In this document: positions 8,901 to 54,330 of the stretch, piece after piece
Position numbering within the stretch: position 1 is the stretch's first letter
Layout: every line of letters starts with the position of its first letter
Assembly (NCBI RefSeq): GCF_018320785.1
Contig: NC_054879.1
Coordinates: 26,520,546 to 26,584,545 of the forward strand
DNA length: 64,000 nucleotides
Origin: Cheilinus undulatus
Lineage: Eukaryota
Direction of reading: 5' to 3'
Position numbers and translations under genes: made by a program
Notes under the pieces: model-generated
The model's input: only the letters and a program-made list of their open reading frames with translations
Databases searched by the model: none
What the model was told of the DNA's origin: nothing

Positions 8901-9090
8901 TATCTGTGTGGGTGTGTCTGTTCAATTGAAACTATCTTACATCACTTTTACAATGTACTCTGGTGAACTACATATGAATATCATGGCATTATGGGCATGT
9001 AATGCCTCCAAGAGAGAGAGAAAAGGGGCTGACAACTATCGTTTCTTCCGAAATAACTCCTATGTCTGGGTGTGTCCTCTCTTCGCAGGC

Positions 9091-9216
9091 ATGGCAGTGT
9101 TTGAGAACTGTTCTGTCTTCCTAGACCTGAATAATATACCTTTTAAGAAGAGGAGGAAGCTGAAGGCAGCAGTCACAGACAATGGAGGAAGCCTTTCCTA
9201 TGTGATCAATAAACAG
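9091..9216 (+). CDS. parp4: PARP4 coding exon 1 (start codon; BRCT N-terminus): MAVFENCSVFLDLNNIPFKKRRKLKAAVTDNGGSLSYVINKQ
   Basis: Polypyrimidine tract and AG acceptor at 9087-88, ATG at 9091, donor GTCAGA at 9217. Matches the human PARP4 N-terminus MVMGIFANCIFCLKVKYLPQQQKKKLQTDIKENGGKFSFSLNPQ. Phase 0. Confidence 0.82.
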
Positions 9217-9589
9217 GTCAGAGAAAGGGATCATTTTCTATTTTCTGAGTGTGATGTAACGGTATAAAAATCTCAATAACACCTTGGTAACAAGTCCATG
9301 GTACAGTGTTTAGCTGAGGATCTGACCAGGGTTAACATAGTTATGATGTTGTTATTTTTAAAAACAGCACTTTTCAGCTGAAATAGTGCTGTTTACAGCT
9401 TATTCCCTACTGATCACTCATCCATTCTTCAACTCAGCGGCTGGAACAGCTCAATCAATCAAACAAGACAATTTGATGAAAACACATAACAAGCTATACT
9501 GTGGCACCAGCGGGTTTACTAAACTTCTATAACCTTTGTTGTCCACCACAAAGATAACCTGAGTTAATACAAAATGTAATTTTTAAATG

Positions 9590-10090
9590 ATAATTTCATT
9601 TATTAAGGGGACAAAGCCATCCAAGCCTACCTGGGTCGATGTGAAAAGCAGTTGAGAGGTGAAGTAGGCTAAAAGGATATCAAAAAGCAACACATCATGT
9701 TGACATCTAAAGAAATTCAAAAACAGGTGTGAAACAAAGTCACTGACATCTATCATTCTAGAAAAGAGTTCCAAAACCATTTCTAAGGCTTTGAGACTTA
9801 TTTGAACCATGGTGAGAGCCATTACCCAGAAATGGAAAAACTTGCAGCAGTGGTGAACTTTGACAGGAGTGTCCGGCCAACCAAAATGACTCCAGAAGTG
9901 CATTGACGACTCATCTAGGAGGTCACAAAAGAATTCAGAACATCTAAAGACCTGCAGGCCTCACTTAACTCAGTGAAGGTCAGTGTTCATGATTCAACAT
10001 TAAGAAAGAGACTGGGCAAAAATGGCATCCATGGGAAGGTTCTCAAAAAGAACACAACTTTTAGTCAATGAAATTAACATTGGACAAGAT
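9590..10090 (+). mobile_element. Tc1-like transposase remnant (N-terminal DNA-binding part)
   Basis: Plus-frame translation ...MVRAITQKWKNLQQ..TLTGVSGQPKMTPEV..LI.EVTKEFRTSKDLQASLNSVKVSVHDSTLRKRLGKNGIHGKVLKK resembles the Tc1 paired-like DNA-binding domain. Confidence 0.55.
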
Positions 10091-12279: not shown

Positions 12280-12547
12280 TGCTCTCTGATAGTGACCAAT
12301 GCTGCAGCCAACCTGAGTTCCAACCGACTGCGGAGCATTTTGAAATTTCAAACTCCTGTGGTGGGGCTGAATTATTTGAACGACTGTATGGAGAAAGGTG
12401 TTCTTCTTCCTTTGGATGAATACAGGCTGATAGAAAAGGATGACCCCCCTCCACCTGGGCCTTTAATACCTGCCTCTGCCCCTTACCCTGACCCTGTTCC
12501 TGTGCCTGTCCCTCTCTCCTCACCAAAGGAAAGTTCACTCCCCCAAG
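12280..12547 (+). CDS. parp4: PARP4 exon (BRCT C-terminal half): CSLIVTNAAANLSSNRLRSILKFQTPVVGLNYLNDCMEKGVLLPLDEYRL...
   Basis: Acceptor cacAG|tgc, donor caag|GTACTG. Aligns to human CTHIILDNADVLSQYQLNSIQKNHVHIANPDFIWKSIREKRLLDVKNYDPYK. Ends in phase 1. Confidence 0.88.
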
Positions 12548-13287: not shown

Positions 13288-13408
13288 AGTCCAAAGTCCC
13301 AATGAGCAAAGCAGTAGATGAGCCGCTCAAAGTCCCTGCAAAGCCTGAGGAATCTGGGAGCCTGAGTGAGAAGGCAGAGAGGATCAGAAAAGTCCTGGGA
13401 AAGTTCAG
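13288..13408 (+). CDS. parp4: PARP4 exon (linker): ESKVPMSKAVDEPLKVPAKPEESGSLSEKAERIRKVLGKF
   Basis: Acceptor tttgtAG, donor ttcag|GTGTGA. The phase (1 in, 2 out) links the neighbouring exons in frame. This low-complexity acidic linker is comparable to the human linker. Confidence 0.65.
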
Positions 13409-15367: not shown

Positions 15368-15446
15368 AAAATATTCGGAAACTGACCCTGATCTTCCAAC
15401 CTTTCCGGATAATTTCCAGGTGGCCAAGTATTCGATCTTTGAAAAG
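15368..15446 (+). CDS. parp4: PARP4 exon: RKYSETDPDLPTFPDNFQVAKYSIFEK
   Basis: Acceptor ttttccAG, donor aag|GTAAAC. Matches human HLPQDFEVAKYNTLEK. Confidence 0.8.
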
Positions 15447-15531: not shown

Positions 15532-15636
15532 GTTAATACCAACACTTGGTGTGTGCTTGAGCTGCAGAGTTTCAAAGGAGATGAAGGATGGAAGTATCGT
15601 GTGGTCAGATACTGGAAAGATGATATATCATCCATG
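15532..15636 (+). CDS. parp4: PARP4 exon: VNTNTWCVLELQSFKGDEGWKYRVVRYWKDDISSM
   Basis: Acceptor ctctccAG, donor atg|GTATTA. Matches human VGMEGGQEAVVVELQCSRDSRDCPFLISSHFLLDDGM. Confidence 0.8.
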
Positions 15637-15879: not shown

Positions 15880-17270
15880 TGTTTTTTAAAACTTGCATTT
15901 TATATTCATATGGAAAAATAAAAAACCAAGAATAAGATATAAGTTGCTTCAGAGCATTAAAGAAAAGGGTGGACTAAATTTACCTAATATTAAAAAATAC
16001 TACTGGGCATCCCAACTAAGAGCACTAAAAGTATGGATTGATAAGGAGCTTGAGACAGGATGGAGGGAAATGGAGCAAAATTCATGCCCTAAAATGCCCC
16101 TAGAGTCTTTACCATTTGTAACAAAGAAAATACAAAATGATTTAAAAATTAAAAATGAATGGATTAAAGGAACATTAAAAATTTGGACAATAATAAAAAG
16201 AAAGCTAAGAATGTCTGATTCAATCTGCAGGGCCACTAAAATAGCATTAAATCCAGACTTTATACCCTCAATGGAAGGAGGATTCTACAAATGGAAAGAG
16301 AAGGGACTGATATACACTGGATAGCTTTTTGAAGGTGAACATATTAAATCTTTTGAACAGTTAAAAAACGAATTTAGCTTAAATGTACAAGATTTTTATA
16401 AATTTTTACAAATTAGAAATTACCTTACTAAACATAAGGAATGGGAGTATATCTGTAAGAAACCAAAATACTGTGAAGAATTATTAATGACAAATTCATG
16501 TAATACTAAAAAGATTATCTCAAAAATGTATAAAGCCCTGCAGGTTGAATCAGAAGACAACAATCTTGATATTAAGGACAAATGGGAGAAAGAGAGAAAT
16601 ATAATAATTTTAGAGGAAAACTGGGAGGAATCATTTAAAGTAGGACAGAAATTATTAAATAGTATTTCATGGTGAGAGTTTGAATGGAAATCAAAAATGC
16701 AATATTTTATTGTTCCAACTGATACATCAAAATACAATGGAAGATCTGACAAATGCTGGAGGGGCTGTGGTCAGACAGGAGACTATGCACATATATTTTG
16801 GGACTGTCCCATAATTAAAGAATACTGGGACAATGTAAAAAGTAAGATTGAAGATATTTGCAAGGAGAAATTGAATTTGGATTTACAATTATTCTTACTA
16901 GGCATTATACCAAAATCTATATCATTAAAAAATAGGAAAATTATTTTAATTCTGAGTACAATAGCAAAAAAAACTATAACTGTTTCCTGGCTAAAACCAC
17001 AGCCTCCCAGTGTGGATTACTGGTGGGAAAGGGTTAATGAAGTGATGGACATGGAAAGAATGACGGCTAGATTGCAGTTTAAATTGAAGAAATTTGAAGA
17101 GTTATGGTCACCTGTAATACAGGAGACAAAAAACTGACATATACCCTACATTACTTATTTATTATTATTATTATTTTTATTTTATTTTATATTATTATTA
17201 TTATTATTATTGTTATTATTTTATTTTATTATTACTATTTTTTTGTGTGTGTGTCTTTTTTTATTGTTTA
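15880..17270 (+). mobile_element. L1-type LINE 3' fragment (ORF2 C-terminus with Cys-rich CWRGCG..HIFWDCP motif) with (ATT)n tail
   Basis: ORFs 15893-16324 and 16697-17137 resemble the L1 ORF2 C-terminus (FIWKNKKPRI..., CWRGCGQTGDYAHIFWDCP). The fragment ends in a microsatellite tail at 17151-17260 and lies in a PARP4 intron. Confidence 0.75.
17151..17260. repeat. (ATT)n/(TTA)n microsatellite (L1 tail)
   Basis: ttattattattattatttttattttattttatattattattattattattattgttattatt... Confidence 0.9.
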
Positions 17271-17750: not shown

Positions 17751-17909
17751 AAGGAGGCAGTGAAGAACACGCTAGTGTTTCTTTCCAAATCAGAGGATGC
17801 TCTGGAGGTGTTCAAATCCTTGAGAGAGACCATGCTAAAAACCGACCTGCAGCTGAGGAGCAACTTTCCTCCACAGGCCCAGACTCTGGGCTCTGCCCCC
17901 CTCCAGGAG
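17751..17909 (+). CDS. parp4: PARP4 exon (PARP helical/regulatory region): KEAVKNTLVFLSKSEDALEVFKSLRETMLKTDLQLRSNFPPQAQTLGSAPLQE
   Basis: Acceptor caacAG, donor gag|GTATGG. Aligns to human ETRRQFAIKKTSEDASEYFENYIEELKKQGFLLREHFTPEATQLASEQLQA. Confidence 0.8.
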
Positions 17910-20558: not shown

Positions 20559-20696
20559 CTGCTGCTGGAGGAGAAGCTGAACACAGGAAGCTTATCAAAA
20601 GAAGTGGGCACATTTGTGGAGCTGTTGTGGACCGAGGCCTTGGGTTGCCTAAACAACATCCTCAGAGTTTCCATCGACAAGCTCAGTCTCAACGAT
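20559..20696 (+). CDS. parp4: PARP4 exon (PARP helical domain): LLLEEKLNTGSLSKEVGTFVELLWTEALGCLNNILRVSIDKLSLND
   Basis: Acceptor tgacAG, donor gat|GTAAGA. Aligns to human LLLEEVMNSSTLSQEVSDLVEMIWAEALGHLEHMLLKPVNRISLND. Confidence 0.87.
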
Positions 20697-20858: not shown

Positions 20859-21026
20859 GTGAGCAGGGCGGAGGGTTATTTGCTTCAGGCTCAGAAGAAG
20901 CTGAAGGAGGAAAATCATACTGAAGTGGCAGCTCTCATGGAAGAAGTTTACACGTTGCTGCCACACAAAGCACCACCCTCACCTCCCTCTGTAAAACTCA
21001 TCTCTCAGAAACTGGACCTCTGTCAG
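20859..21026 (+). CDS. parp4: PARP4 exon (PARP helical domain): VSRAEGYLLQAQKKLKEENHTEVAALMEEVYTLLPHKAPPSPPSVKLISQKLDLCQ
   Basis: Acceptor tgtgtAG, donor cag|GTAACA. Aligns to human VSKAEGILLLVKAALKNGETAEQLQKMMTEFYRLIPHKGTMPKEVNLGLLAKKADLCQ. Confidence 0.87.
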
Positions 21027-21955: not shown

Positions 21956-22107
21956 GTAATCCGTGATATGTTGAATGTAAGTGAGATGACTCAAGGAAGC
22001 CCCATGCCTTCCTCTCTGGGGAAATACCGAGCTCTGAGATGCAGCATTGAGACCATTCCCCCTGGCAGCTCTGAGTTTCATGCTGTGACCGCCACGCTTC
22101 GGGGCAG
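21956..22107 (+). CDS. parp4: PARP4 exon (start of catalytic domain): VIRDMLNVSEMTQGSPMPSSLGKYRALRCSIETIPPGSSEFHAVTATLRG
   Basis: Acceptor tcaAG|gta, donor ggcag|GTAGGG. Aligns to human LIRDMVNVCETNLSKPNPPSLAKYRALRCKIEHVEQNTEEFLRVRKEV. Ends in phase 2. Confidence 0.86.
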
Positions 22108-22453
22108 GTAGGGTACCTCCCACTTCCTGACCCCCAGCTACTATTTTTGCATCACCAGAACCATGTGACTTCAAAGAACCTATTGGCAACAAAATAGGAA
22201 ATAAAAAATGGCTTTGTTTTTCAGGAACTTTTTACCCAGATGAAAAAGTAACTATCTAGCAGATTACCAGACATACAGAAATAACTTCTTGTATTACTCA
22301 TTACAATAAAAAGTAATTTGAGCATGCTAACAGATAACATTTTTAATATCTTACTGCAAATACTACTCCTTATGCATATGTAAATATGTGTGTTTATGCG
22401 GTATGTGTGTTTTTTGTTTCTCATACCCCAACTTTCCCATCTATTCTATGCAG

Positions 22454-22585
22454 CAAAGTGCAGATCAAACAGGTTTTCCGTGTCAGCAGAGGAGTGGAGC
22501 TCCAGATGTTCAAAAGTGAAATCGGGAACGTTCAGCCCCTCCTCCATTCCTCCAGTCCCAGCAACTTTGTAGGAGTGCTTTCTCG
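22454..22585 (+). CDS. parp4: PARP4 exon (catalytic; His of the H-Y-E triad): SKVQIKQVFRVSRGVELQMFKSEIGNVQPLLHSSSPSNFVGVLSR
   Basis: Acceptor ctatgcAG, donor tctcg|GTAAAA. Aligns to human VLQIFRVGRVNETTEFLSKLGNVRPLLHGSPVQNIVGILCR. Confidence 0.86.
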
Positions 22586-22829
22586 GTAAAATCACACTTG
22601 TAAAAACAAACATAAACATCATCAGTCACAAGAACAGCTGCTTTTTAGTGAAAAATGTACTGGTTTATTTTGATGTATCTGCTCTTATTAATATTTAACT
22701 TTTTGAAAAAAATGGTGTATATCTCAAAACATATAGCATTAAAATATTTTGGAATATAATTCAAGCTAACCAGTTATCCTTTAGCTTGTCTTTGAATTCA
22801 CATAATCCTGAGTGAGGAAAATGTTTAGA

Positions 22830-23880: not shown

Positions 23881-23884
23881 ATAT

Positions 23885-24470: not shown

Positions 24471-24709
24471 CTCGCTTTAGTTATACAGGGACCTGACGGT
24501 TCGCCTCAGCAGCCTCCTTCATGGTTAAAGAGCAGGTCCACTGTCCCACAGCTAGTACAAAATCTGCATTGTTCCTCCTGTATCCAAAGTTCGACAGGGA
24601 TTTTCAATAAGTGGTTATGTAATAAGAAGCAGCTTCATCTTCAACTTAAATAATTTAAATTAATTGACTTCAGTTTTGTAATAAAGGTTTGTGTTCTGTC
24701 TCTTTTTAG

Positions 24710-24808
24710 TGGTCTGTTGCCGCCGCGTATGGTAGTGGAGGATCATGGGATTGAGAGAACAGACATCGGTAATCTGGGCAGTGGAATCTACTTTAGTGAC
24801 TCTATAAG
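24710..24808 (+). CDS. parp4: PARP4 exon (catalytic; GSGIYFSDS motif): RGLLPPRMVVEDHGIERTDIGNLGSGIYFSDSI
   Basis: Acceptor ctttttAG, donor taag|GTTAGC. Near-identical to human GLLLPKVVEDRGVQRTDVGNLGSGIYFSDSL. Confidence 0.9.
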
Positions 24809-24994: not shown

Positions 24995-25178
24995 GACTAG
25001 TGTGAAATACTCTAAACCCAGCGCGACAGACGGCTCTCGGCTGGTGCTTGTGTGCGATGTGGCATTGGGAAAGTGCATGGATCTCTACAAAAAGGACTTC
25101 ATGCTGACCAAGGCTCCTGAGGGACACAACAGTGTGCATGGTGTTCGCATTACCCGTGGCAATTGTTCTCAGTTTCTG
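24995..25178 (+). CDS. parp4: PARP4 exon (catalytic): RTSVKYSKPSATDGSRLVLVCDVALGKCMDLYKKDFMLTKAPEGHNSVHGVRITRGNCSQFL
   Basis: Acceptor ccacAG, donor ctg|GTACGA. Matches human STSIKYSHPGETDGTRLLLICDVALGKCMDLHEKDFSLTEAPPGYDSVHGV. Confidence 0.9.
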
Positions 25179-25297: not shown

Positions 25298-25436
25298 GAT
25301 GATGAGTTTGTGGTGTACAGCCCTGATCAGGTGAAGCTGAAGTATTTGGTGCAGTTTACTGTGGAGGGAGACCACCTAAAGGAGTTTAGTCCTGTCATCA
25401 ACACCTCAGCTGAGCGTGTCCTCTCTAATAAGCAAG
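25298..25436 (+). CDS. parp4: PARP4 exon (catalytic Glu; end of PARP domain): DDEFVVYSPDQVKLKYLVQFTVEGDHLKEFSPVINTSAERVLSNKQ
   Basis: Acceptor ctgcAG, donor caag|GTAAGC. Matches human DDEFVVYKTNQVKMKYIIKFSMPGDQIKDFHPSD. Ends in phase 1. Confidence 0.9.
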
Positions 25437-25546: not shown

Positions 25547-25677
25547 AGGACGACGGGGTTGATTGTGTTAAAAACCCTCTGGAGGATGTGACGGCTGGAC
25601 TGTTGGACAGCTCTGGTCAGCAGCTCCCTTTGCAGGCTGTTCATGTGAAGTGCAAACTGATAGATCTGCTCTCTCAG
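25547..25677 (+). CDS. parp4: PARP4 exon (start of VIT domain): EDDGVDCVKNPLEDVTAGLLDSSGQQLPLQAVHVKCKLIDLLSQ
   Basis: Acceptor ggtcAG|ag. The alternative AG at 25540 gives an in-frame stop and was rejected. Donor cag|GTGACA. Aligns to human GLQDASGNLVPLEDVHIKGRIIDTVAQ. Confidence 0.78.
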
Positions 25678-25769: not shown

Positions 25770-25901
25770 GTCATTATTTTCCAAAAATACACCAATCAGA
25801 GTGCTGTGCCTATTGAGGCAAAATACGTCTTCCCGTTGGATGATTCTGCAGCAGTATGTGGGTTTGAAGCCTTCATCAATGGCAAACATGTGATTGGACA
25901 G
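25770..25901 (+). CDS. parp4: PARP4 exon (VIT): VIIFQKYTNQSAVPIEAKYVFPLDDSAAVCGFEAFINGKHVIGQ
   Basis: Acceptor ttttcAG, donor cag|GTAACT. Matches human VIVFQTYTNKSHVPIEAKYIFPLDDKAAVCGFEAFINGKHIVGE. Confidence 0.92.
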
Positions 25902-26590: not shown

Positions 26591-26677
26591 GTTAAGGAAA
26601 AGGAGAAGGCTCGCAAGGAGTACAAGCAGGCTATCGCGAAAGGCCATGGGGCGTACCTCATGGACCAGGATGCCCCA
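26591..26677 (+). CDS. parp4: PARP4 exon (VIT): VKEKEKARKEYKQAIAKGHGAYLMDQDAP
   Basis: Acceptor cctcAG, donor cca|GTAGGT. Matches human IKEKEEAQQEYLEAVTQGHGAYLMSQDAP. Confidence 0.92.
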
Positions 26678-27156: not shown

Positions 27157-27321
27157 GATGTTTTTACCATCAGTGTGGGAAATCTACCACCTGGAGCGTC
27201 TGTCCTTATCAAAGTGACCTTTGTGTCCGAGCTGATCATCAAGAATGGCAGGATTCTCTTCAGTCTGCCTGGAAGTGTGGCCCCGTGGCAGGAGCTAGAA
27301 GCTCTTAACCAAACAACTCAG
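27157..27321 (+). CDS. parp4: PARP4 exon (VIT): DVFTISVGNLPPGASVLIKVTFVSELIIKNGRILFSLPGSVAPWQELEALNQTTQ
   Basis: Acceptor tcttcAG, donor cag|GTAAGG. Matches human DVFTVSVGNLPPKAKVLIKITYITELSILGTVGVFFMPATVAPWQQDKALNENLQ. Confidence 0.92.
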
Positions 27322-27622: not shown

Positions 27623-27669
27623 GTCACTGTGGAGAAGGTTACTGTGGATGTTGAGGCTGCAATGAAAAG
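27623..27669 (+). CDS. parp4: PARP4 micro-exon (VIT): VTVEKVTVDVEAAMK
   Basis: Acceptor acaacAG, donor aaag|GTGAGC. Matches human DTVEKICIKEIGTKQ. Phase 0 in and 2 out, as the flanking exons require. Confidence 0.72.
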
Positions 27670-28789: not shown

Positions 28790-28871
28790 GGAATTCACCC
28801 TGGACATGTCCATAGAGATGCCAAATTTGATTACAAACTTGCAATGCCTCACTCACAAAGTCAAGATCAAG
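28790..28871 (+). CDS. parp4: PARP4 exon (VIT end): REFTLDMSIEMPNLITNLQCLTHKVKIK
   Basis: Acceptor cctcAG, donor aag|GTAACT. Matches human SFSLTMSIEMPYVIEFIFSDTHELKQK. Confidence 0.85.
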
Positions 28872-29807: not shown

Positions 29808-29945
29808 AAAACTGACTGTAAGGCGGTACTGAGTGTGCTGCCTGGCGAGCTCATGAGTCCAGATGGTTTCCAGCTGTTGGTCACCCTGGATAGGGTCCAC
29901 CTGCCCAGGATGTGGGTGGAGAAACACCCAGACAGTGACAGCCAG
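29808..29945 (+). CDS. parp4: PARP4 exon: KTDCKAVLSVLPGELMSPDGFQLLVTLDRVHLPRMWVEKHPDSDSQ
   Basis: Acceptor cccacAG, donor cag|GTCTTC. Matches human RTDCKAVISTMEGSSLDSSGFSLHIGLSAAYLPRMWVEKHPEKESE. Confidence 0.87.
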
Positions 29946-30036: not shown

Positions 30037-30226
30037 GCCTGCATGTTGGTTTTCTATCCGAATTTTGAGGTTGACAACAGTTCTGGATTTGAGGAAGTCG
30101 TCCTTTTGATCGATACATCTGAGTCCATGAAAGGAGAGTCTCTCCGCATGGCCCAGAAAATCGCCCTGCAGGCTCTCAAAACCCTCAGCCAGTATCTAAG
30201 AATTAACATCATTTTATTTGGCACAG
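30037..30226 (+). CDS. parp4: PARP4 exon (vWA domain start, MIDAS DxSxS): ACMLVFYPNFEVDNSSGFEEVVLLIDTSESMKGESLRMAQKIALQALKTLSQYLRINIILFGT
   Basis: Acceptor caacAG, donor acag|GTCAGT. Matches human ACMLVFQPDLDVDLPDLASESEVIICLDCSSSMEGVTFLQAKQIALHALSLVGEKQKVNIIQFGT. Ends in phase 1. Confidence 0.9.
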
Positions 30227-32072: not shown

Positions 32073-32143
32073 ATCATACTGAGGCTTTCTTGATGGCACA
32101 GCCTCTTCTTGAAGCTCGTCAGGCCACCAGGAGCTTCATCAGG
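32073..32143 (+). CDS. parp4: PARP4 exon (vWA): DHTEAFLMAQPLLEARQATRSFIR
   Basis: Acceptor tctcctAG, donor agg|GTGAGT. The phase (2 nt in, 0 out) joins the previous exon (G-T-D...). Weak but colinear with human GYKELFSYPKHITSNTMAAEFIMSA. Confidence 0.72.
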
Positions 32144-33798: not shown

Positions 33799-33986
33799 TG
33801 CTTTTCTCCAGTAGGAGGCAGCACTGAGCTGTGGCGTCCCCTGCGAGCTCTCAGCCTGTTGCCTCCTTCCAGCGGCATCAGAAACTTGCTGCTGCTATCA
33901 GACGGCCACATCCAGAACGCAGAGCTCACCTTGAAGCTGCTCCGAGAAAACACTCAGCACATGCGCCTGTTCACATGTGGCGTCAG
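33799..33986 (+). CDS. parp4: PARP4 exon (vWA): CFSPVGGSTELWRPLRALSLLPPSSGIRNLLLLSDGHIQNAELTLKLLRENTQHMRLFTCGV
   Basis: Acceptor ccttcAG, donor tcag|GTCTGA. Matches human TPTMGNTDFWKTLRYLSLLYPARGSRNILLVSDGHLQDESLTLQLVKRSRPHTRLFACGI. Confidence 0.87.
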
Positions 33987-34219: not shown

Positions 34220-34319
34220 CCCAACAGCCAATAGACACATGCTGAGAGCACTAGCCCAGGCAGGGGGTGGAGCCTACGAATTCTTTGACACAAAAACCAA
34301 ACACAACTGGGCAGAGAAG
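34220..34319 (+). CDS. parp4: PARP4 exon (vWA end): SPTANRHMLRALAQAGGGAYEFFDTKTKHNWAEK
   Basis: Acceptor tcaccAG, donor aag|GTGAGA. Matches human GSTANRHVLRILSQCGAGVFEYFNAKSKHSWRKQ. Confidence 0.87.
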
Positions 34320-36854: not shown

Positions 36855-37025
36855 GTGGCATCTCAGGTGAAGCGTATGGCATCTCCCTGCTGCAGCTCAG
36901 TGTCAGTGAAGTGGCAACAGTTCAGCCAAACAGCACCCTCTCCTGTGCAAGCCCCCAAGCAGCTCAATGCTCTGTTCAATGACAGCCACACACTGGTCTA
37001 TGGCTTTGTGCCGCACTGCACGAAG
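36855..37025 (+). CDS. parp4: PARP4 exon: VASQVKRMASPCCSSVSVKWQQFSQTAPSPVQAPKQLNALFNDSHTLVYGFVPHCTK
   Basis: Acceptor tgacAG, donor aag|GTACCC. Matches human IEDQMTRLCSPSCHSVSVKWQQLNPDVPEALQAPAQVPSLFLNDRLLVYGFIPHCTQ. Confidence 0.87.
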
Positions 37026-37350: not shown

Positions 37351-37431
37351 GCTACACTGTTTGGAAACTTGAGCGGTCAGGAGGTTCAGAACATGGTGTC
37401 CACCACAGAGCTGCAGAAGACCAGGGGCACA
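37351..37431 (+). CDS. parp4: PARP4 exon: ATLFGNLSGQEVQNMVSTTELQKTRGT
   Basis: Acceptor gatccAG, donor aca|GTAAGG. Matches human ATLCALIQEKEFRTMVSTTELQKTTGT. Confidence 0.87.
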
Positions 37432-38518: not shown

Positions 38519-38599
38519 TTTCTTCACAAGCTCACAGCAAGAGCCATAATCAGGGATTTTGAGGACGGAAGCTTGGATACCAACGAAGCGGAACATGAG
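38519..38599 (+). CDS. parp4: PARP4 exon: FLHKLTARAIIRDFEDGSLDTNEAEHE
   Basis: Acceptor tgtttAG, donor gag|GTGTGT. Matches human MIHKLAARALIRDYEDGILHENETSHE. Confidence 0.87.
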
Positions 38600-40598: not shown

Positions 40599-40694
40599 GG
40601 GAAGAAAGCAGAGTTGAAGGACTTTGTCATCAAGTTGAGCAAAGAGTACTCCATCCTGTGTCAGTTCACCAGCTTTGTGGCCATCGAGGAAAGG
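40599..40694 (+). CDS. parp4: PARP4 exon: GKKAELKDFVIKLSKEYSILCQFTSFVAIEER
   Basis: Acceptor tttccAG, donor agg|GTTAGT. Matches human MKKQTLKSLIIKLSKENSLITQFTSFVAVEKR. Confidence 0.87.
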
Positions 40695-40798: not shown

Positions 40799-40939
40799 GA
40801 CTCAGAACAAACAGAAGAGGGGTTCACGGACATCCCCAAGCTGATCGCAGAGGAAAACGTCGACATCTTGCCTTACATCGGCTGGGAAGAGCAAGCAGAG
40901 AGAAAAAATGAGGATGAATTTTCTGAGGAGTCTGACGAT
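40799..40939 (+). CDS. parp4: PARP4 exon: DSEQTEEGFTDIPKLIAEENVDILPYIGWEEQAERKNEDEFSEESDD
   Basis: Acceptor tttttAG, donor gat|GTGTGT. Matches human DENESPFPDIPKVSELIAKEDVDFLPYMSWQGEPQEA. Confidence 0.8.
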
Positions 40940-41028: not shown

Positions 41029-41139
41029 GATGTTGGTTTTGGCTTATTTAGCTCTGATGAAAATGATGAAGATGACATGGGAATGTTTGTAACCTGTTCT
41101 ACGAAAGTGGAGTCATACTCGCCCCAGTATGAACCCACG
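41029..41139 (+). CDS. parp4: PARP4 exon (acidic linker): DVGFGLFSSDENDEDDMGMFVTCSTKVESYSPQYEPT
   Basis: Acceptor ttacAG, donor acg|GTTAGT. Phase 0 on both sides. Sequence is lineage-specific but frame-consistent. Confidence 0.7.
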
Positions 41140-41317: not shown

Positions 41318-42946
<1,629 letters not shown>

Positions 42947-43150: not shown

Positions 43151-45597
43151 CTACAACTCCACAAAAGCTTGGGCGCTTTGTAACATGTAATTAAGAACAA
43201 AATGCAATGATTTGCAAATCTCGTAAAACCTACTTTTATTCAAAATAGAACTAAAACAACATATCTGATCTTGAAACTAAGACATTATATCATTTCATGA
43301 AAAATTTAAGCTCATTTGAATTTGATGGCAGCAACACATCTCAGACTGAAAAGTATGGACAGGGCCATGTTAACCGTTGTGTAGCATCCACTCTTAACAA
43401 CTGTCTGTAAATGTCTGGGAAATGAGGAGACCTGTTTTGGGAGAGGAATGTTGTCCCATTCTTGTCTGATGTAGGATTCAAGATGCTCGACAGTTCTGGG
43501 TCTTCTTTGAATGTTTTTTATTTTTTGATCTACCAAATGTTTCTGTTGGTGAAAGGTCTGGACTACAGGAAGGCCAGTTCAGCACTCAGGCTCTTCTACT
43601 TTGAAGCCATGCTGTTGTGATGGATGTGGTATGTGGTTTGGCATTACCTTACCATTTGGCATTGCGAAAATATGCAAGGCATCCCTTAAAGAAACGTTTT
43701 CTGGATTGGGACATATATATGTTGCTCTAAAACCTCTATACTTTCCGCCATTGATAGAACCTCTCCAGATCTGTAAGGTGCCCATAGGCACTAATGCAGC
43801 CCCATACCATCAGAGATGCAGGCTTTTGAAGTGTGCGCTGGATGATCCCTCTCCTCTTTAGTCTGCACAACAGGGTTTCACAGGTTTCCAAAAAGAATTT
43901 TTAATTTGATTAATCTGACCACAGAACAGTTTTTCATTTTATCTCAGTTCATTTTAAATGAGCTTTGGCCCAGAGAAGATTGTGGATCGTGTTTACATAT
44001 GGCTTCTTCTTTGCATGATTAAATTTAACTTGTATTTGTAGATGGGACTGCAAACTGTGCTGACAGACAGAGATTTCTGGAAGTGTTCCTGAGCCCATGC
44101 ACTGATTTCCAGTACAGAATCGCGCCTGTTTTGAATTGCAGTGCTGCCTGTGGGCCCTAAGATCATGAGCATGCCAACCAAACTTCATTCTTTTCCCTTT
44201 CACACAGAGATTTCTCCAGATTCTTTGAATATTTTGATGGTATTATGGACTGTAGATACTGGGATGTTCAAAGTGTGTAATTTTATGTTAAGAAACAATT
44301 TTCTAGAGTTTTTCAACAACTTTTAGACGCAGTTGTTTTTTTGTAAATTGGTAACCCTCTGCCTATCTTTACTTCTGAGAGACTCTGCCTCTCTAAGATG
44401 CTCCTTTTTTACCCTGTCATGTTACTGACCTGTTGCCAATTGACCTTTTTAGGTGTAAAATGCTTCTCCAGCAGTTTTTATTAGTACAATGTAATTTTCA
44501 GCCTTTTGCTGTCCCTACATTTTTTTAGATGAGTTGCTGCCATCAAATTCAAAGTGAGCTAAATTTTTTCATGAAATGGTCAAATGTCACAGTTTCAATA
44601 TATTATATGTTGTTTATGATTTATTGTGAATGAAATATTAGTTTATGAAATCTGCAAATCAATGCATTTGGTTTTTATATACAGTGCTTAACAAATGTAT
44701 TAGACTACCCTAACCCTAACCATGTAAGGTTTATGCCACAGCTGCCCTAAATTAAAAGCATTGGTAATTACTAAAATCATTTTTTATTACTCTGCAATGG
44801 TTAATACACCAATATGTAGAAGCTCTTTAACCCAAATGATATTTTTAATGCTAAAATAAAATATAACTAGAATGGCCGTCTGAGGCGGCAGACCCACGCC
44901 TAAGCAGCGCCACCGAGGAACTCAGCTCCCATTGGTTACTATGATGTTCAAAATTCGAAGTGCGAGAAAAACCAAACGGATGCGCCGATCATCACCAAAA
45001 TTGAATCAGTTCTTCCCTGTCACTATCCCAATATTCCCTGAAAGTTTGGTGAAGATCTGACTTTCCATTCTCGAGTTATCTTGTACACATACAAACAAAC
45101 AAAGAAACGAACAAGCAAAGATACGGAACCCTTTACATAACCCCCTGCCGATTTCATCGGCATGGGTAATAAAATATCACCTAAAATATAATTATTATTG
45201 TTATCCGTGAATTTTCAAATTTACTGATTTACAAAAAAACTGAAAAAATAGTAAAGCACATTAATATTTCTTGATTAATATGTCAAATTATAGTTATTTA
45301 CTTGCATTCCTGAACAGAAAAATGAGTTTTAGTGGTTGAATGTTATGCTTGATTCATTTCTGACTTCTCAGAGAAGCCCAGTGAGCCGGCTCAAATTTGG
45401 GTGAATTCACTTTGAAATTCCTCATTCCTGTTCAAAATGGTAAAACGTGGAGAGCTCACTGAAAATGAAAGAGTCCGCATGAAAGCACTACATGATGCTG
45501 GATGGTCTCTGAGTCAAATATGACAGATGGTCTAATAAATTTGTTAAGCACTGTACATTTTACACAGCACCCAATCATTTTTTAAATTGGGGTTTTT
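43151..45597 (-). mobile_element. Tc1-like family A copy (minus) carrying a nested insertion
   Basis: Left terminus ctacaactccacaaaagcttgggcgctttgtaacatg. Transposase pieces on the minus strand are 43312-43536 (C-terminus ..SYIRQEWDNIP..) and 43949-44203 (N-terminus ..WAKAHLK..). The right terminal repeat resumes at 45555-45597 after an 872-bp insertion. Confidence 0.75.
44682..45553. mobile_element. Nested Tc1/mariner-type non-autonomous element inside the family A terminal repeat
   Basis: 24-bp inverted termini are CAGTGCTTAACAAATGTATTAGAC and GTCTAATAAATTTGTTAAGCACTG, flanked by TA/TA. There is no transposase ORF. It contains ccctaaccctaacc near 44708. Confidence 0.7.
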
Positions 45598-47050: not shown

Positions 47051-47390
47051 CACTGTGTGTAAATTGGAAGATAACCCTTTGTTTAAACTTGATTTAACAA
47101 GCTTTGAGCATTACGAACTTAAGGCACATTATTGCAAATAATAATAATAATGGTGCATAGGCCACAACCAACTTCTTGGATGAAAAGTGGTTTGAAAAAT
47201 GCAACTGTTCTCCAGATTTTATGGTTACTTTTACCTTACTGAGTTCTTCAATTACTCTTCATTTTTGTGGGACCTCCTTGGAACCAGGTAACAACCAGGT
47301 TAACATGAATTTATAGATGGAATGATAGCATTTATTTGAAAACAGATTTAGTGTCTACAGTGAGCTTATTGTGACTTCGTTTTCTTTTTT

Positions 47391-47395
47391 GTGTG

Positions 47396-47428
<33 letters not shown>
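47391..47428. repeat. (GT)n microsatellite abutting the 3' splice site of the large PARP4 exon
   Basis: gtgtgtgtatgtgtgtgtgggtgtgtgtgtgtgtgtgt ends 12 bp before the acceptor AG at 47439-40. Confidence 0.9.
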
Positions 47429-47440: not shown

Positions 47441-48948
47441 AGTCCCATCTGCAACTCAATGAAAATGTCTAAGAAAATCATGCCTGAAGAGGAGATTGGA
47501 GAGTGTGCTGAGTACATGGCTGAGTTTTCTTCAAGTTGGTCTTCTGTAGAAGAGAGTGCTGAAATCATGGAACAGTCTGACCAGGAATTATGCTTCATCT
47601 CTCCTCAACTTGAATTTTTGACCAACCCGACTGAAGTTGAGTTGAGTGATGTATGGGCCGAAACACTTAATCCTCTTCTCGAGAGTCGTAGGCTCCAACA
47701 AGGGTATAGTTCTCCTCTTTACCCCACTGGTCCTCAGGGCATAGCATTTGGTGGTCCTCCAAGTCCTGTCCTAAGTGATCTTCGAGCCAAAGGTGACATA
47801 CCTAGGTCTTCCTCTACTTTGTTTTCAAGCAGGGCACTGGATGGTCCTCCCCCGCCACCTCCTCCTCCTTCTAAATCCACTAAATTTAAGGGCCAAGCAT
47901 TTGGCGTACATACTCCTCCTCCTCCTCCTACTGGTCCTCCAGTCAGATCAATTGATCGTTTTCCTCCACCTCCTCCTCTTTGCGGTCCGCCTCCTCCTCC
48001 TCCTACTGCCGCTGTAACGAAGGGCCCAGCATTTGGCAGACAACCTCTTCCTCCTTCTCCCCCCACTGGTCCTGCAATCAGATCATTTGCTCGTCCACCT
48101 CCTCTTCCTGGAGTTCCTCTCCCTTCCAATGCTCTGCCATTTAGAGCATTTGGCCATCTTCCACCTCCTCAGATTGGGGGTCCTCCCCCTCATTCCCCCT
48201 TCACTGGTCTGTCATTTGCTGGTACTCCTCCTCCCCATCCTCCTTTAGCATTTGGTGGTCCTCTCCCTCCTTTCCTTGATGGTTCATCTCATCCTCACCC
48301 TCTCAGTTTTAAGGCCAACTTTTTTGATAGTCATGAAAGTGCTGGACCAATTATGTTTGGTTCACCCCTCAATCTTTCATATAGATCACTTGCCGTTGAG
48401 GATCCTGAACTTTGCACTGCCAGCTCTGTTATTAAACATGACAAGTCCCCTGCTGCAGAGAAATCTCCAGAAGGTGCTGACATCTTGCTACCAGCTAGTA
48501 ATGAGATTACACCAACACAGGCTGAAAGAAGTCTAAGGAGAAAAATCTCCACTTCTTTAGTTCGTGGAGGCTTGTTCGGTGCAACAGCACCCTTTAGCTT
48601 TGAGAGCAGCAAACCAAGCTATGTAACCCAGCAGAAACAGCAGTCAGGTTTCAGTTTCAGGTGCTCCGAGGTTGAAGCAGACTTGCAGCAAGAAGAACGC
48701 TTCCAACGAGATGAACAAGAACCAAGTATGCGTAAGCTAAAGAAGAAAAGTGCAAAAATGATTGATTTGTGTGCGGAGGAACTTGTAAATGAAAATGAGC
48801 CTTCACCAGAGGAAGATTCATCTGACTCAGAAATAACATATGGATCTAGGGAAGGGTTCGGCATAAGGAGTGGCATAAGGAGTGGCGGCATACGCCGTTC
48901 AACTTTCAAGTCACAGCCACGGAAGCATCTGAGGATTGCACGCTCCGT
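47441..48948 (+). CDS. parp4: PARP4 large exon (~503 codons): acidic N-terminus, polyproline tandem repeats (FH1-like), Ser/Glu-rich C-terminal part
   Basis: Acceptor ttgtAG|AGTCCC sits directly after a (GT)n tract. There is a 1.5-kb open frame (six-frame ORF 47459-48952). Donor tccgt|GTAAGT uses the G of the frame's terminal GTG-TAA, so the stop is spliced out. Ends in phase 2, which the next exon needs. This corresponds to the large proline-rich exon of human PARP4. Confidence 0.82.
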
Positions 48949-49558: not shown

Positions 49559-49625
49559 GGAAGAGTCAGCAGATTCTGAGGCACTGAAGGTTAGATGGAC
49601 CAAGATCTTCCAGCTGCAGCATTTA
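49559..49625 (+). CDS. parp4: PARP4 exon: VEESADSEALKVRWTKIFQLQHL
   Basis: Acceptor atttcAG, donor tta|GTAAGA. 1-nt entry phase completes the GT left by the large exon. Comparable to human ...HWQDAVPWTELLSLQTE. Confidence 0.68.
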
Positions 49626-49940: not shown

Positions 49941-50043
49941 GATGGCTACTGGGAGATAACCAAAGAGCTGGGTGATTTAATAAATGTGGATGTGGACCTG
50001 TTTGCCAACGTTTTCCTGAAAAACAAAGGCATCAACTCTCTTG
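49941..50043 (+). CDS. parp4: PARP4 exon (vault/MVP-interaction region): DGYWEITKELGDLINVDVDLFANVFLKNKGINSL
   Basis: Acceptor tgttgcAG, donor cttg|GTAAGA. Matches human DGFWKLTPELGLILNLNTNGLHSFLKQKGIQSL. Confidence 0.85.
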
Positions 50044-50628: not shown

Positions 50629-51597
50629 TAAGACGTAGCGTTAGTTCATTAAGGACATGGAAGTCATATGCCCAGCTGTGATCAGCTGATGGCCTGCTGA
50701 TCCCAATTATCATTTTCTAGCCGTCTGCTTTATAGTCTAAACTTTTTTTTGCACCCTCATATTCTGTTTGATGCTACTACTACAAACTAATCTTCACTGA
50801 TTCAATATGCATTGCCATAGATGTATCTAGCTTTATGGGGGTTTCTAGTTATGTGCTCCCTGAAAAGTCAAAGCATGCTGCTTGACTAACCCAGGTAGCA
50901 TCTTTTTGAGCAGAACCTTCTCCACCAAGTAAAACTGCATACCCCTTATGCAAATTAAATGTACGATGAGGGTGTTCCCGACTGAAAAACTTCAGATCCT
51001 GCAATTAAGACAGATGTATTCGAGTGATGCATGATATTGGATTTTTGCCAATATCCAAATTCCTGATTTTCTTTTCCATCATCACTTTGGCCTCACTGGG
51101 TTATGCCAAGCTGTGTCACGAATCGTCCTGGTCTGGAGCTGAGCCCAAGCATGCCAGCCCTGCCTCCAGACATGCTTTGGTCACAACCATGCACCAAATA
51201 AAATACATGCCGGACTACTAAGAAGGAGAAACTTTAAGTAAAAGCAATGGCCAACTCTTAAACAAAACAATGCTTACTGAGAACAAAAATGTTTGTTTCT
51301 ATTGATACTATTTATCATTTTAAGCTAATATCTGCCTTTGCTGATGTTATGAGCACACTAACATTTAGGTCTGTTTACAGTATGCAGTGTATATTGTCCA
51401 AGTATGTAGCTGTCACTAACTGAATATGTGGTTTCCAACACACCTTATTTTAAAAAGGACAAAAGAAAGCTGATTTACTGGGCTAGCTGTCTCATGAATA
51501 TAACACCTGTTAAATATATATCTCAGTTTGATTTCTACCTTTAGTTTTCACCAGTTCTCATCAACACTGAAAGCTAATTTTTGTCTGTACAATGAAG

Positions 51598-51730
51598 GTG
51601 TGACGGCCCGTGACAACATCCTGAGGTTGGTGGCGACCCTGCTGGTTCTACAGTTAATGAGGGTGGAGAAGCTGGAGGAAGGAAAACTTCTCCGCACCCT
51701 CTTCAGTCTGTACGACTCATCTCAGCCCAG
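51598..51730 (+). CDS. parp4: PARP4 exon (C-terminal MVP-interaction region): GVTARDNILRLVATLLVLQLMRVEKLEEGKLLRTLFSLYDSSQP
   Basis: Acceptor aatgaAG, donor cccag|GTCTGT. Matches human GVKGRECLLDLIATMLVLQFIRTRLEKEGIVFKSLMKMDDPSISR. Confidence 0.87.
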
Positions 51731-54122
51731 GTCTGTTCAAACCTGAAAAAAATGTGTATAAATAGTGTGTCATGATGTTTAATTCCTCACTGAATCTAAA
51801 CAGAATTGTGTCAGCCCCATTTAAGTGGGATTCAGTTAGTTAATGTGGTGTCTGTAGCAGCAAGAAGTTGTTGAAAAATGCTCAATATAATGTTTTTAGA
51901 ATTGAACATAAAGGCTTGAATATTGAGAAGAAAATCTCCCCTGTTAAAGGAAGAACTACAAATACAAGCACAATAATTTTTGTATGTATAGGAAGTCATT
52001 TTTAAACTTGACTTTTGTTAACCCCAAGTTTTCGTGAGAGAAAAAGAAGATTACTGTCAGAACTGTGCAAATACTTTTGCAACCCTCCTTCCTCTACAGC
52101 CACTTGAGGTGATTGCGTTTCCACAAAGATGACCACACCTTACCGACAGTTCTGTCTGTCAAAGGTGGAAACATATGAAATACTTACCATCCACAGTTAT
52201 AATATATAATATAAAGCGCTTTAAAAGCTCAGTTAGAAGGCGGGCTCAAGTCGAGCCAGATTTGCACTCAGACATAATACACATCTTCACTTTCTGATTG
52301 GTTATATACTGTATGTTACATGTGTGGCCAGTTTTGCTGTCAAGAATTGCACAAAATTCCCGGTTGTATTTGTTGTGGTTTAATGATGCTCACTGTCAGA
52401 TTGTATGTGCATTTTTAGGCTTTATTATAAGCATAAATATTAGGTTATATTTATAAAACATGGAATTTCTCTGTTTATACATTGCTTTACTGTATTTTTT
52501 TTAAGCAACATCTACCAGAGACATCAGATGTTAATTATCCACTTGCTTTTATCTGGCATATTTACACTGTCTGGTCCTCTACTAGTATAGCTCATCTGCA
52601 GTCACATGATATTCTTCTGGTGATGATGGGGGAAGTAAATGTAGAACAACAGTCAAGGATCAATGGGAATGGAGGAAAGTTAGTATGTTGAAGCTCTAGG
52701 TGGACCTGTATGCTGCAGTTATCATCAGAACATTTCTACATACATCAGGTATGATCCCTAGACCAGTGTTTCCCAACCATTTTTCCTTGAAGCCCCCCCT
52801 ACATGCACCTAAGAAAAGCAGAGCCCCCCCAGGACCCAAAAGTGAAGAAAAAGTGACACACTGACACCAAAAATCAACAAAGATTTGAATTGTTTCAATG
52901 ATAAAACCCTAAAAAAAGGCCTATGAATGTTTTTATTATCTAAAGACCTTTGCATAAACTACTTACTAACTATTTTATCAAGGTTTTAGTCAATATTTGC
53001 ACATCTATTTTTGGCAGCCTCAAAGCAGACAAAGCCTCACGCCCCCCCTTGAGATCTTTGCCTAGACTTTATAAAAAAATGGGATTTTTCTAATGTGTTA
53101 TCCAATTTACCTGGAGTGGATATGATTAATGTAACAGATGATACCTCTATGATATCTAGCTAGATGAAGGAAGACAAGTCTTCAGCAGTCCCTTTAACAG
53201 CTTTTCTCCCTTGTGTTTCCATAAATACACTTTAAATGGAAACACTGGTATACCATTATGCAAATAAACTTCATGGGGTAAGTGACCGAGTGATGGTTTG
53301 TCCTTCACAAACAAGCTGGTTTAGAATGACAGGAGCTGAGGGAGCCAGTTTCCTTTTTTCCATTTTTGATTTTATTTAATGCACATTAAAAAAAAGTCAA
53401 ACTGAGACTGCATCAAGAGCCATTTGGGAGACAGTAAACTGGCTTTTATTCCAGAGCTGAGCGAAATAATCCAAACCTTTAAAAGAGATTTCCCAGTGTA
53501 GTGAAAGAGGCTTGACAGACATCAGCTTAGAAATGCAAGCCGGATCAGGATTTACTGAACTAAACCAGCCCACTTGGTGGAAACTAACCACACACAGATG
53601 TCTGACACCACTCCTCCAGAAGGTAGATGGAGGCTTTTTTTCCATGTCTGCCACTATTCCTCTGCGAGCTTTTAAAGTTTTTCCTGAATATGTCAATACT
53701 TTGGGGACTCAAAAAATAAGCACAAAGGTTTTTTGTTTTTTTTTTCTAGCATCTTGCTGAGTTACAGAGCCATTAGCAGCCTAGAAACTTTGTTGTTTGG
53801 TAGAGCTTCTCCATGCAAATATTACTTCCTTTCCCACATCTGAGGTTTTTTGCTGGGACATGATGTCATCTGCATATAACCCTTTGTTCAATTATGCTTT
53901 TTCTCTTTTAAATATACAGTATTATTCAACCATTTCAGAACTTAACTGCCATTGTATTTGTGCTATGTAGCCAGCGTTGATGAGTTTTCAAGCAGTTTTT
54001 GTGATTAAAATTTAAAAAATAATAAAGGTATTGATAGTAGAACATTAAAGCTTAAAATATGGGTTCATAAGGGCCCAACTCACCATACTCTTCCATTTTT
54101 GATAACTTCTGTTTCCCTCTAG

Positions 54123-54330
54123 GTCCAAGCGCTGGGAGGCGTTAAAGAAGGCAGTGGACTGGGTTTGCTGGGCTGATCGTCAGTACCCCTGCATCTACAG
54201 CCGGCTGGAGTTTGGTTTGAGCTGGGAATCCTCCACCCGTCAGCTGCTGGGATACGAAGCCCTCCCTCCCTTCTCTCCCCTCACCGGTCTGAACCTGCAG
54301 AAGACCCCTGTCCCTCTGCTTGTCCACTGA
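54123..54330 (+). CDS. parp4: PARP4 terminal coding exon: RSKRWEALKKAVDWVCWADRQYPCIYSRLEFGLSWESSTRQLLGYEALPPFSPLTGLNLQKTPVPLLVH*
   Basis: Acceptor ccctctAG, TGA stop at 54328-54330. Matches human NIPWAFEAIKQASEWVRRTEGQYPSICPRLELGNDWDSATKQLLGLQPISTVSPLHRVL. Confidence 0.87.

Follow-up and report, generated by a model that had tools for sequence, protein, structure and literature searches.

The analysed window, the whole stretch of DNA under study, is 64,000 nt long. Its plus strand carries, at 9091-54330, a gene that we identify from its sequence, with a probability of about 0.95, as an intact PARP4 (vault PARP) orthologue of a percomorph-like teleost, predicted to comprise 35 coding exons and to encode 1,966 aa (Table 1). 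Transcription runs from left to right, and the open reading frame measures 5.9 kb after splicing. The locus is an ordinary PARP4 copy of a spiny-rayed teleost fish, spread over a 45-kb stretch, and the predicted product is assigned to vault PARP, a putative mono-ADP-ribosyltransferase. PARP4 is a kind of gene already known, and since it has been predicted in dozens of teleost genomes, its presence here is standard annotation, routine work rather than a discovery.

The gene model was built anew and independently, with homology, coding potential and splice signals as guides. Seeds from tblastn and a small phase-aware exon-chaining script were used, and weak sites were inspected manually. The rebuilt coding sequence, which starts with the ATG at 9091 and ends with the TGA, comprised 5,901 nt and contained no internal stops. 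All 34 introns were of the GT-AG type (22 in phase 0, 4 in phase 1 and 8 in phase 2), and GC content was 0.50 in exons versus 0.37 in introns. The big exon 31 held an open frame of 503 codons, which at the intronic stop-codon frequency would arise by chance with P ~1e-13. In a phmmer search, the full-length human PARP4 PDB chain 11jf_P/9bw6/9bw7 was matched with E = 0 and 1,226 bits. This match, the 503-codon frame and the GC contrast between exons and introns indicate that the model is far beyond chance.

A preliminary description of the region, made from the letters alone, had also arrived at 35 exons in an uninterrupted frame, and its length of about 1,950 aa roughly agrees with the 1,966 aa found. 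All eight coordinates that it quoted coincided with splice sites or gene ends: 21956, 25547 and 30037 are the acceptors of exons 9, 14 and 21, and 25436, 28871 and 34319 are the donors of exons 13, 19 and 24; 9089 directly follows an AG acceptor and precedes the ATG by 2 nt, and the TGA ends at 54330. It had taken the agreement of intron phases as strong evidence. The phases were indeed consistent, but they support the model less than claimed, because 22 of the 34 introns are in phase 0, exon 5 has two phase-0 donors and exon 30 is a 0-to-0 exon. Phase left the exon-5 donor and exon 30 undecided, and the choice was therefore made by cross-species alignment.

Table 1. Coding exons of the predicted PARP4 gene, in window positions.
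Exon	Position	Strand	Residues (aa)	Content
1	9091..9216	+	1-42	ATG 9091-9093; BRCT first half
2	12280..12547	+	43-132	BRCT second half and Pro-rich tail
3	13288..13408	+	132-172	variable linker; top chain in phase-aware search
4	15368..15446	+	172-198	putative WGR-like region begins (FQVAKYSIFEK)
5	15532..15636	+	199-233	other donor 15603, also phase 0
6	17751..17909	+	234-286	
7	20559..20696	+	287-332	helical (HD) domain begins
8	20859..21026	+	333-388	HD
9	21956..22107	+	389-439	HD/ART boundary
10	22454..22585	+	439-483	ART fold, catalytic His470 (PLLHSS)
11	24710..24808	+	483-516	ART fold, Tyr510 (GSGIYFSDS)
12	24995..25178	+	516-577	ART fold
13	25298..25436	+	578-624	ART fold, catalytic Glu580 (DDEFVVY)
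14	25547..25677	+	624-667	linker and VIT start
15	25770..25901	+	668-711	VIT
16	26591..26677	+	712-740	VIT
17	27157..27321	+	741-795	VIT
18	27623..27669	+	796-811	47-nt micro-exon VTVEKVTVDVEAAMK
19	28790..28871	+	811-838	
20	29808..29945	+	839-884	
21	30037..30226	+	885-948	vWA begins; MIDAS-type DTSES aa 910-914
22	32073..32143	+	948-971	vWA
23	33799..33986	+	972-1034	vWA
24	34220..34319	+	1034-1067	vWA ends
25	36855..37025	+	1068-1124	conserved post-vWA region
26	37351..37431	+	1125-1151	
27	38519..38599	+	1152-1178	FLHKLTARAIIRDFEDG...
28	40599..40694	+	1179-1210	
29	40799..40939	+	1211-1257	acidic tail at end
30	41029..41139	+	1258-1294	acidic segment DVGFGLFSSDENDEDD...SPQYEPT; phase 0-to-0 cassette
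31	47441..48948	+	1295-1797	1,508-nt Pro/Ser-rich big exon
32	49559..49625	+	1797-1819	MINT domain begins (VRWTKIFQLQHL)
33	49941..50043	+	1820-1854	MINT
34	51598..51730	+	1854-1898	MINT
35	54123..54330	+	1898-1966	stop TGA 54328-54330; MINT ends

Most exon junctions (26 of 34) fell in ungapped conserved alignment with at least 18 homologues each, and for most of these the number was 85-160. Among the homologues spanning them, junctions 1/2, 6/7, 26/27 and 27/28 were ungapped in 57/63, 95/108, 101/113 and 111/113, respectively. Crude splice matrices scored the exon 5 and exon 20 donors poorly, and likewise the exon 14 and exon 27 acceptors. The weak acceptor of exon 14 was the sole in-frame AG after an upstream stop codon, and direct reading showed that the AG of exon 27 is supplied by TAG at 38516-38518. 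The donor of exon 2 was weak as well and sits in a variable region; the acceptor of exon 30 scored 7.7. Exon 18 was the sole chain meeting the requirement of phase 0 to phase 2 across the gap, and its peptide VTVEKVTVDVEAAMK aligned to human DTVEKICIKEIGTKQ. Exon 22 was the top chain with the required phases across its gap and aligned to the human segment YKELFSYPKHITSNTMAAEFI.

The N-terminus of the product matched Pfam BRCT_2 at aa 3-91 (35.5 bits, cutoff 27.3) and the Pfam BRCT model (24.3 bits, cutoff 21.3). The human PARP4 BRCT crystal chains 9dfo/9dev were found with E ~3e-7 by phmmer against PDB. As shown by alignment, the first residues of exon 1, MAVFENCSV, are those with which teleost PARP4 proteins begin, and the exon 3 peptide SKVP.SKAV...KGPAKP...VLERFR is common to Dicentrarchus and other teleost PARP4 proteins. 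Pfam gave no WGR match in the PARP4 product. Residues 175-290, the putative WGR-like region, could be aligned to residues 136-250 of human PARP4 at high posterior probability, and phmmer alignments to PARP1 WGR-CAT chains (4dqy_C, 4opx_C, 7s6h_B; E ~1e-14) began at aa 207-209, upstream of the HD. In human PARP4 itself the W-G-R residues are not conserved (PMC10711553). PARP_reg reached 20 bits at aa 323-401, under its cutoff of 26.8 bits. Neither the putative WGR-like domain nor the helical (HD) domain, which lie between BRCT and the ART fold, had been listed in the preliminary description.

The catalytic domain was matched by Pfam PARP at aa 437-598 with 103.5 bits, and the PARP4 HD-ART crystal chain 8sx1 was found by phmmer with E = 1.8e-103. 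The H-Y-E triad was intact (His470, Tyr510 and Glu580). Pfam VIT followed at aa 652-762 (129.5 bits) and VWA_3 at aa 904-1055 (68.2 bits), with the metal-site DxSxS motif of the vWA domain intact as DTSES. The Pfam order along the protein was BRCT, PARP_reg (below threshold), PARP, VIT and vWA. To our knowledge, VIT followed by vWA is a combination found in no other member of the human PARP family. The order BRCT, PARP, VIT, vWA and MVP-binding tail had been proposed beforehand, and it was recovered from the Pfam run and the alignment to human PARP4 structures, including the MINT chain of the vault-PARP4 complex. BRCT was placed correctly in exons 1-2, the catalytic region lay inside 21956-25436 (exons 9-13), and the interval given for vWA (30037-34319) is that of exons 21-24. 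For VIT, placed at 25547-28871, the start was right, but the end lay about two exons beyond the Pfam domain.

The segment between the conserved post-vWA region and the tail is derived mostly from one 1.5-kb exon. This exon 31 is composed of 16% Pro and 13% Ser, the linker is poorly conserved, and the segment is presumably disordered. Downstream, the exon 32 motif WTKIFQ(L/M)QH is conserved in the Lates, Poeciliopsis and Takifugu proteins. MINT has been defined as residues 1562-1724 of human PARP4 (PMC12280208). When the helical MINT domain was searched alone, aa 1808-1951 matched human 1571-1715 with 110 bits and E = 4.8e-31. Two of the three MVP-contact residues named for the human protein (PMC12280208), S1614 and R1689, were kept, and the third, K1618, was replaced by Thr, at a position that also varies (R, K, T) in the PARP4 proteins of other teleosts. 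The C-terminus ...PLLVH ends where teleost homologues end.

It is possible, though unlikely, that the locus is PARP4 and the 35-exon model is not its major transcript, with at least one boundary or cassette being different. The variants considered were use of exon-5 donor 15603 instead of 15636, skipping of exon 30, skipping or shortening of exon 31, and extra 5' non-coding exons. The two exon-5 donors share phase 0 and one Sander lucioperca isoform lacks the extension, but the long form YRVVRYWKDD was found in most teleost homologues. Inclusion of exon 30 is undecidable by phase; it is backed, together with its junction to exon 31, by D(L/M)GFGLF, present in Sparus and Lates proteins, and by PQYSPTSP across the 30/31 junction, present in Lates and Hippocampus. 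In many teleost PARP4 entries, about aa 1257-1288 is followed directly by about aa 1803-1850, without the big exon. However, these may be partial models, the longest returned protein being at most 1,426 aa, and the big exon, open over 503 codons, is the positional homologue of the Pro-rich linker found in the proteins of Lates, Hippocampus and Nematolebias. The boundaries at junctions 2/3, 13/14, 30/31 and 31/32, which lie in low-conservation linkers and rest on splice consensus and a few homologues, are provisional, as is the choice of exon-5 donor. The AG acceptor ending at 9088, 2 nt before the ATG, makes an upstream non-coding exon possible.

It is distinctly improbable that the gene is a PARP4-like paralogue specific to a lineage, for example a duplicate that was retained, and not the one-to-one orthologue of human PARP4. 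Several fish entries carry the name 'PARP4-like', and numerous distinct PARP4 entries exist for carp and for Sinocyclocheilus. Both lineages have undergone an extra genome duplication, however, which together with isoforms fits this multiplicity, and the percomorph matches resemble isoforms of single genes. The complete human architecture, MINT included, is kept end to end, and no sign of a second copy was seen within the window. That the gene is a recently inactivated, still intact-looking unprocessed pseudogene is hardly credible: direct evidence for it is absent, and what weak hints there are come from some poorly scoring splice sites and from K1618T in MINT, a position at which other teleosts also vary. 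The fact that 35 exons and 5.9 kb of coding sequence contain neither stops nor frameshifts, that all introns are GT-AG, that catalytic and metal-site motifs are intact and that exon GC exceeds intron GC (0.50 vs 0.37) argues against it.

We infer by analogy with the human protein that fish PARP4 would be enzymatically active and associated with vaults. MINT would anchor the enzyme to the inside wall of the cage that major vault protein forms, and the ligand of BRCT would be vault RNA or another nucleic acid. Single ADP-ribose units would be moved by the ART fold from NAD+ to the enzyme itself, MVP or cargo, and VIT and vWA would act as protein-interaction modules (PMC12280208, PMC10711553).

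The domain order of the fish protein is that of human PARP4: BRCT, a putative WGR-like domain, HD, ART (H-Y-E), VIT, vWA, a presumably disordered linker and MINT. The structures compared were 9bw6, 9bw7 and 11jf (full-length), 8sx1/8swy (HD-ART) and 9dfo (BRCT). The human protein, or vault PARP, is UniProt entry Q9UKK3. Alignment to human PARP4, which the preliminary description had suggested, was run against the full-length PDB chain and was colinear at E = 0, in three blocks (fish 1-102, 175-1244 and 1808-1951 versus human 3-105, 136-1216 and 1571-1715). With 1,966 vs 1,724 aa, the fish protein exceeds its human counterpart by 242 aa. The linker from the post-vWA block to MINT measures about 564 aa versus about 355 aa in human and holds 209 of the 242 extra residues, in line with the earlier view that the big exon accounts for most of the added length; a Pro-rich insertion after BRCT adds about 42 aa. 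The catalytic His is followed by Ser in this protein (PLLHSS) and by Gly in human PARP4 (LLHGS). Human PARP4 reportedly acts as a mono-ADP-ribosyltransferase with no nucleic-acid activation (PMC10711553). PARP1 has a homologous ART fold and helical domain, with the H-Y-E triad in both, but the fish protein lacks zinc fingers and possesses VIT, vWA and MINT. The VIT-vWA tandem module is shared with the inter-alpha-trypsin inhibitor heavy chains ITIH1 and ITIH4 (ITIH4 chain 9c4f_I matched aa 657-1216, E = 1.3e-11, phmmer), which are secreted and lack BRCT, ART and MINT.

Strong database matches were all named PARP4 or poly(ADP-ribose) polymerase 4. The variable regions were matched by 141 database proteins; of those with a name, nearly all were PARP4 or poly(ADP-ribose) polymerase and of teleost origin. 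No near-identical sequence was present in the searched protein collection. The Pro-rich linker can barely be aligned with other teleost species, and many teleost entries are without the big exon. Teleost PARP4 proteins (e.g., Dicentrarchus labrax A0A8C4EJQ4, Sander lucioperca A0A8C9XNQ1, Astatotilapia calliptera A0A3P8PBF0 and a partial Lates calcarifer protein) showed about 70-76% identity over aa 1-1257/1288 and MINT, and they have in common with the product of this gene the start (MAVFENCSV...), the C-terminus (...LLVH) and the teleost-specific PLLHSSSP.

The gene model was rebuilt independently of the exon list in the preliminary description. A hand-joined PARP-VIT peptide served as the first protein search query and returned about 100 fragments, of which the named ones were nearly all PARP4 of birds, sturgeon and teleosts. 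When these fragments were compared with the window by tblastn, short colinear coding blocks were found between 20.5 and 37 kb. Because all matches were 531 aa or shorter and no full-length reference was among them, the human PARP4 sequence was taken as the tblastn seed for the remaining gene, as a lead only. This seed gave colinear matches from 9091 to 54282, and its residues were the same as those of the PDB full-length PARP4 chain in the aligned regions. Splice sites were set from AG/GT lists around each seed. Gaps between seeds were filled by a small script that chained exons with regard to phase and scored them by codon log-odds derived from the seeds, and the sequence was read directly where crude splice matrices failed.

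The resulting model has 35 coding exons on the plus strand (9091-54330), with a CDS of 5,901 nt encoding 1,966 aa and no internal stops. All 34 introns, 85 to 6,301 nt in size, are bounded by GT-AG. GC content is 0.50 in exons, 0.37 in introns and 0.38 over the window, which is AT-rich vertebrate-type genomic DNA with transposon fragments in between. A complete 35-exon plus-strand PARP4 gene had been called by eye in the preliminary description; its exon count is that of the rebuilt model, its eight quoted coordinates all fall on boundaries of that model and its protein length is within 1% of 1,966 aa, so the by-eye exon calling was accurate against an independent rebuild.

The Pfam scan placed BRCT, PARP, VIT and vWA domains in the order that had been proposed (see table). 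PF26156 and PF26166, which are listed for homologues, were absent from the scanned Pfam copy, and control proteins carrying them also gave no match, so that the lack of a match in the model carries no meaning. Among all PDB sequences the best match was the 1,724-aa "Protein mono-ADP-ribosyltransferase PARP4" (11jf_P, 9bw6, 9bw7; E = 0, 1,226 bits). The alignment to this human chain, for which the preliminary description had called, is colinear in three blocks, model residues 1-102, 175-1244 and 1808-1951 corresponding to human PARP4 residues 3-105, 136-1216 and 1571-1715. The PARP4 HD-ART (helical domain and catalytic fold) crystal chain 8sx1 matched at E = 1.8e-103 and PARP4 BRCT chains at about 3e-7. 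The C-terminal 175 aa alone matched PARP4 only (residues 1571-1715, E = 4.8e-31), within the MINT, the C-terminal domain that interacts with the major vault protein (MVP); cryo-EM work on the human complex of vault and PARP4 sets the limits of this domain at residues 1562-1724 (PMC12280208).

A second protein search, with a query restricted to the variable regions at the two ends of the protein, N- and C-terminal, returned 141 proteins, and again the named ones were nearly all teleost PARP4. The best matches were percomorph (Dicentrarchus, Sander, Astatotilapia, Anabas and Pampus), about 70-76% identical over aa 1-1257/1288 and the MINT. Their N-terminus MAVFENCSV... and C-terminus ...LLVH are those of the model, which indicates that its start and stop codons are correct. 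The source is probably a percomorph-like teleost outside the searched collection; a look-up of the exact ORF sequence of the big exon (exon 31) gave no match. Judged from its sequence, the locus is a complete and apparently functional PARP4 gene of a teleost, and its architecture is the one established for the family.

Domains of the predicted PARP4 protein (aa) and other features of the window (nt)
Feature	Position	Strand	Support or context
BRCT_2	aa 3-91		Pfam, 35.5 bits
PARP_reg	aa 323-401		Pfam, 20 bits, below its cutoff
PARP	aa 437-598		Pfam, 103.5 bits
VIT	aa 652-762		Pfam, 129.5 bits
VWA_3	aa 904-1055		Pfam, 68.2 bits
Three consecutive open frames (144, 116 and 153 aa)	15890-17134	+	Intron 5
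(TTA)n microsatellite	17159-17239		Intron 5, after the L1-like frames
Tc1/mariner-type transposase, N-terminal fragment	42168-42497	-	Intron 30 (largest intron); Pfam HTH_Tnp_Tc3_2, E = 9.4e-14
Perfect 89-bp tandem duplication	54727-54898		1.9 copies, 100% match, TRF score 344; long T run at start
Reverse-transcriptase fragment	56604-57655	-	Downstream of gene; Pfam RVT_1, E = 2.6e-6, below cutoff
Probable C-type-lectin-like first exon, with heptad-like neck (…LTDRLRATDQQLSLLTEQRDLLNVSL…) or CTLD start (CPAGWVMFQCSCYLFS…)	62095-62550 and 63671-63910	+	

Agreement of all intron phases had been offered as strong evidence for the exon structure. The agreement is real, and its weight is less than was stated, as two thirds of the introns are in phase 0 (22 in phase 0, 4 in phase 1 and 8 in phase 2). 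Phase cannot decide the exon-5 donor or the inclusion of exon 30 (41029-41139), since both exon-5 donors (15603 and 15636) are phase 0 and exon 30 is a 0-to-0 cassette; these two choices were settled by cross-species alignment instead. The long exon-5 peptide YRVVRYWKDD is found in most teleost PARP4 proteins, the exon-30 motif D(L/M)GFGLF in Sparus and Lates proteins, and PQYSPTSP, in Lates and Hippocampus, spans the exon 30/31 junction uninterrupted.

To assess the junctions, 177 database homologues were aligned to the model. For 26 of the 34 junctions, 18 or more homologues align across without gaps in conserved sequence, and for most of these junctions the number is 85-160. Support was weak at 2/3, 13/14, 30/31 and 31/32, all within linkers poorly conserved among species, and these boundaries could still shift. 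Individual homologues (Lates, Hippocampus and the database protein P0133) are ungapped across 30/31 and 31/32, and the exon 14 acceptor at 25547 is the sole in-frame AG past an upstream stop codon. The short exon-5 donor at 15603 and an exon-2 donor at 12397 were rejected because homologues have the longer peptides. The exon-32 donor at 49589 was rejected in favor of 49625, VRWTKIFQLQHL being conserved, and the exon-27 acceptor at 38531 in favor of 38519 after sequence reading. The chaining script also proposed mini-exons in intron 30 (42192-42247, 44118-44149, 44529-44553 and 44892-45048). Their scores were near zero, homologues run continuously over the exon 30/31 junction, and the overlap of one candidate with the opposite-strand Tc1-type transposase fragment counts against it; all were discarded. 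The model may differ from the major transcript at the exon 5 donor, in whether exons 30 and 31 are included, and in a possible 5' non-coding exon joined to the acceptor at 9088/9089.

The predicted protein exceeds human PARP4 by 242 aa. According to alignment block coordinates against the human PDB chain, the fish protein has about 564 aa from the last conserved post-vWA block to the MINT where human PARP4 has about 355 aa, and this difference of 209 aa bears out the earlier attribution of the extra length mainly to the big exon (exon 31). The post-BRCT linker differs by 42 aa (73 aa versus 31 aa). The big exon (47441-48948) encodes 16% Pro and 13% Ser with several polyproline runs, and is barely alignable to other fish, whose Pro-rich linkers occupy the corresponding position. 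The probability that its 503-codon frame stays open by chance is about 1e-13. Directly upstream of its acceptor, a (TG)n microsatellite (47390-47428, about 19 copies) replaces the typical polypyrimidine tract.

Many annotated teleost PARP4 entries (P0103-P0111 and others) lack the big exon, with the acidic region (about aa 1257-1288) joined straight to the MINT (model aa 1257-1850). These could reflect real skipping, incomplete models or a length ceiling of the collection; the homologue search yielded no protein longer than 1,426 aa. The linker exon contains about six degenerate units of the form "AFG ... PPPPP ... GPP" with FH1-like polyproline tracts. That the enlarged exon is a teleost-specific platform for profilin, SH3, WW or EVH1 domains, tethering PARP4 on the vault to partners from the cytoskeleton or from signalling, with exon skipping as an on/off switch, strikes us as very improbable. 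If it were true, skipping of the linker exon, apparent in many annotated fish isoforms, would toggle the platform function.

The intron-5 frames presumably derive from an L1-type LINE, as we take them to resemble the C-terminal part of ORF2; they had no Pfam match. Peptides similar in appearance to the Tc1-type fragment (…GLQ.GQFST…VVMDVV…) recur near 3.7, 43.5 and 59.1 kb, as would be expected of several decayed copies. One peptide of intron 10 (…FPSNTFQLL…TGYVIPPAHSG…; 23934-24400, plus strand) resembles by eye one at 56707-56895; blastn detected no DNA-level similarity at E < 1e-10 between this element and the downstream retroelement, and if related, they are old copies. The tandem duplication lies about 400 nt past the stop codon of PARP4, within what is probably its 3' UTR, and the first canonical AATAAA past the stop, a candidate poly(A) signal, is at 55129. 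Towards the right end of the window, two plus-strand segments are, by their sequence, probably the first exons of a C-type-lectin-like gene; the Pfam Lectin_C match reached no more than E = 0.0037, since the window ends within the domain. Nothing resembling a real gene was found on the minus strand inside the PARP4 gene, and scanning of the entire window revealed neither Rfam families nor tRNAs.

PARP4 is a well-described vertebrate gene with predicted teleost orthologues already public for dozens of species, and the significance beyond correct annotation is small. The clean full-length teleost model now includes the long linker exon missing from many database entries, and could be of use in comparative studies of vault biology or of the fast-evolving linker of PARP4.

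The catalytic residues His470, Tyr510 and Glu580 are present, as are the TSVKYS motif and the vWA DxSxS motif (DTSES), all in the forms most common among teleosts. Directly after the catalytic His (aa 470-472, nt ~22546-22554), the fish model has Ser and human PARP4 has Gly (LLHGS). In PARP1, the corresponding Gly contacts nicotinamide through its backbone. PLLHSSSP occurs in 52 database proteins, and by this comparison the Ser is a teleost-wide feature, not a defect of this copy. By homology to the human protein (PMC12280208, PMC10711553), the MINT would likely dock the enzyme within the MVP cage and the BRCT bind vault RNA, the H-Y-E ART fold would likely carry out mono-ADP-ribosylation damped by BRCT and WGR, and VIT and vWA would act as interaction modules. 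Of the residues that contact MVP in human PARP4, S1614 and R1689 have conserved equivalents in the fish MINT. Human K1618 pairs with MVP D214 in a salt bridge (PMC12280208), whereas its equivalent in the fish (aa ~1856, exon 34, nt ~51600) is Thr, with R, K or T at this position among aligned fish.
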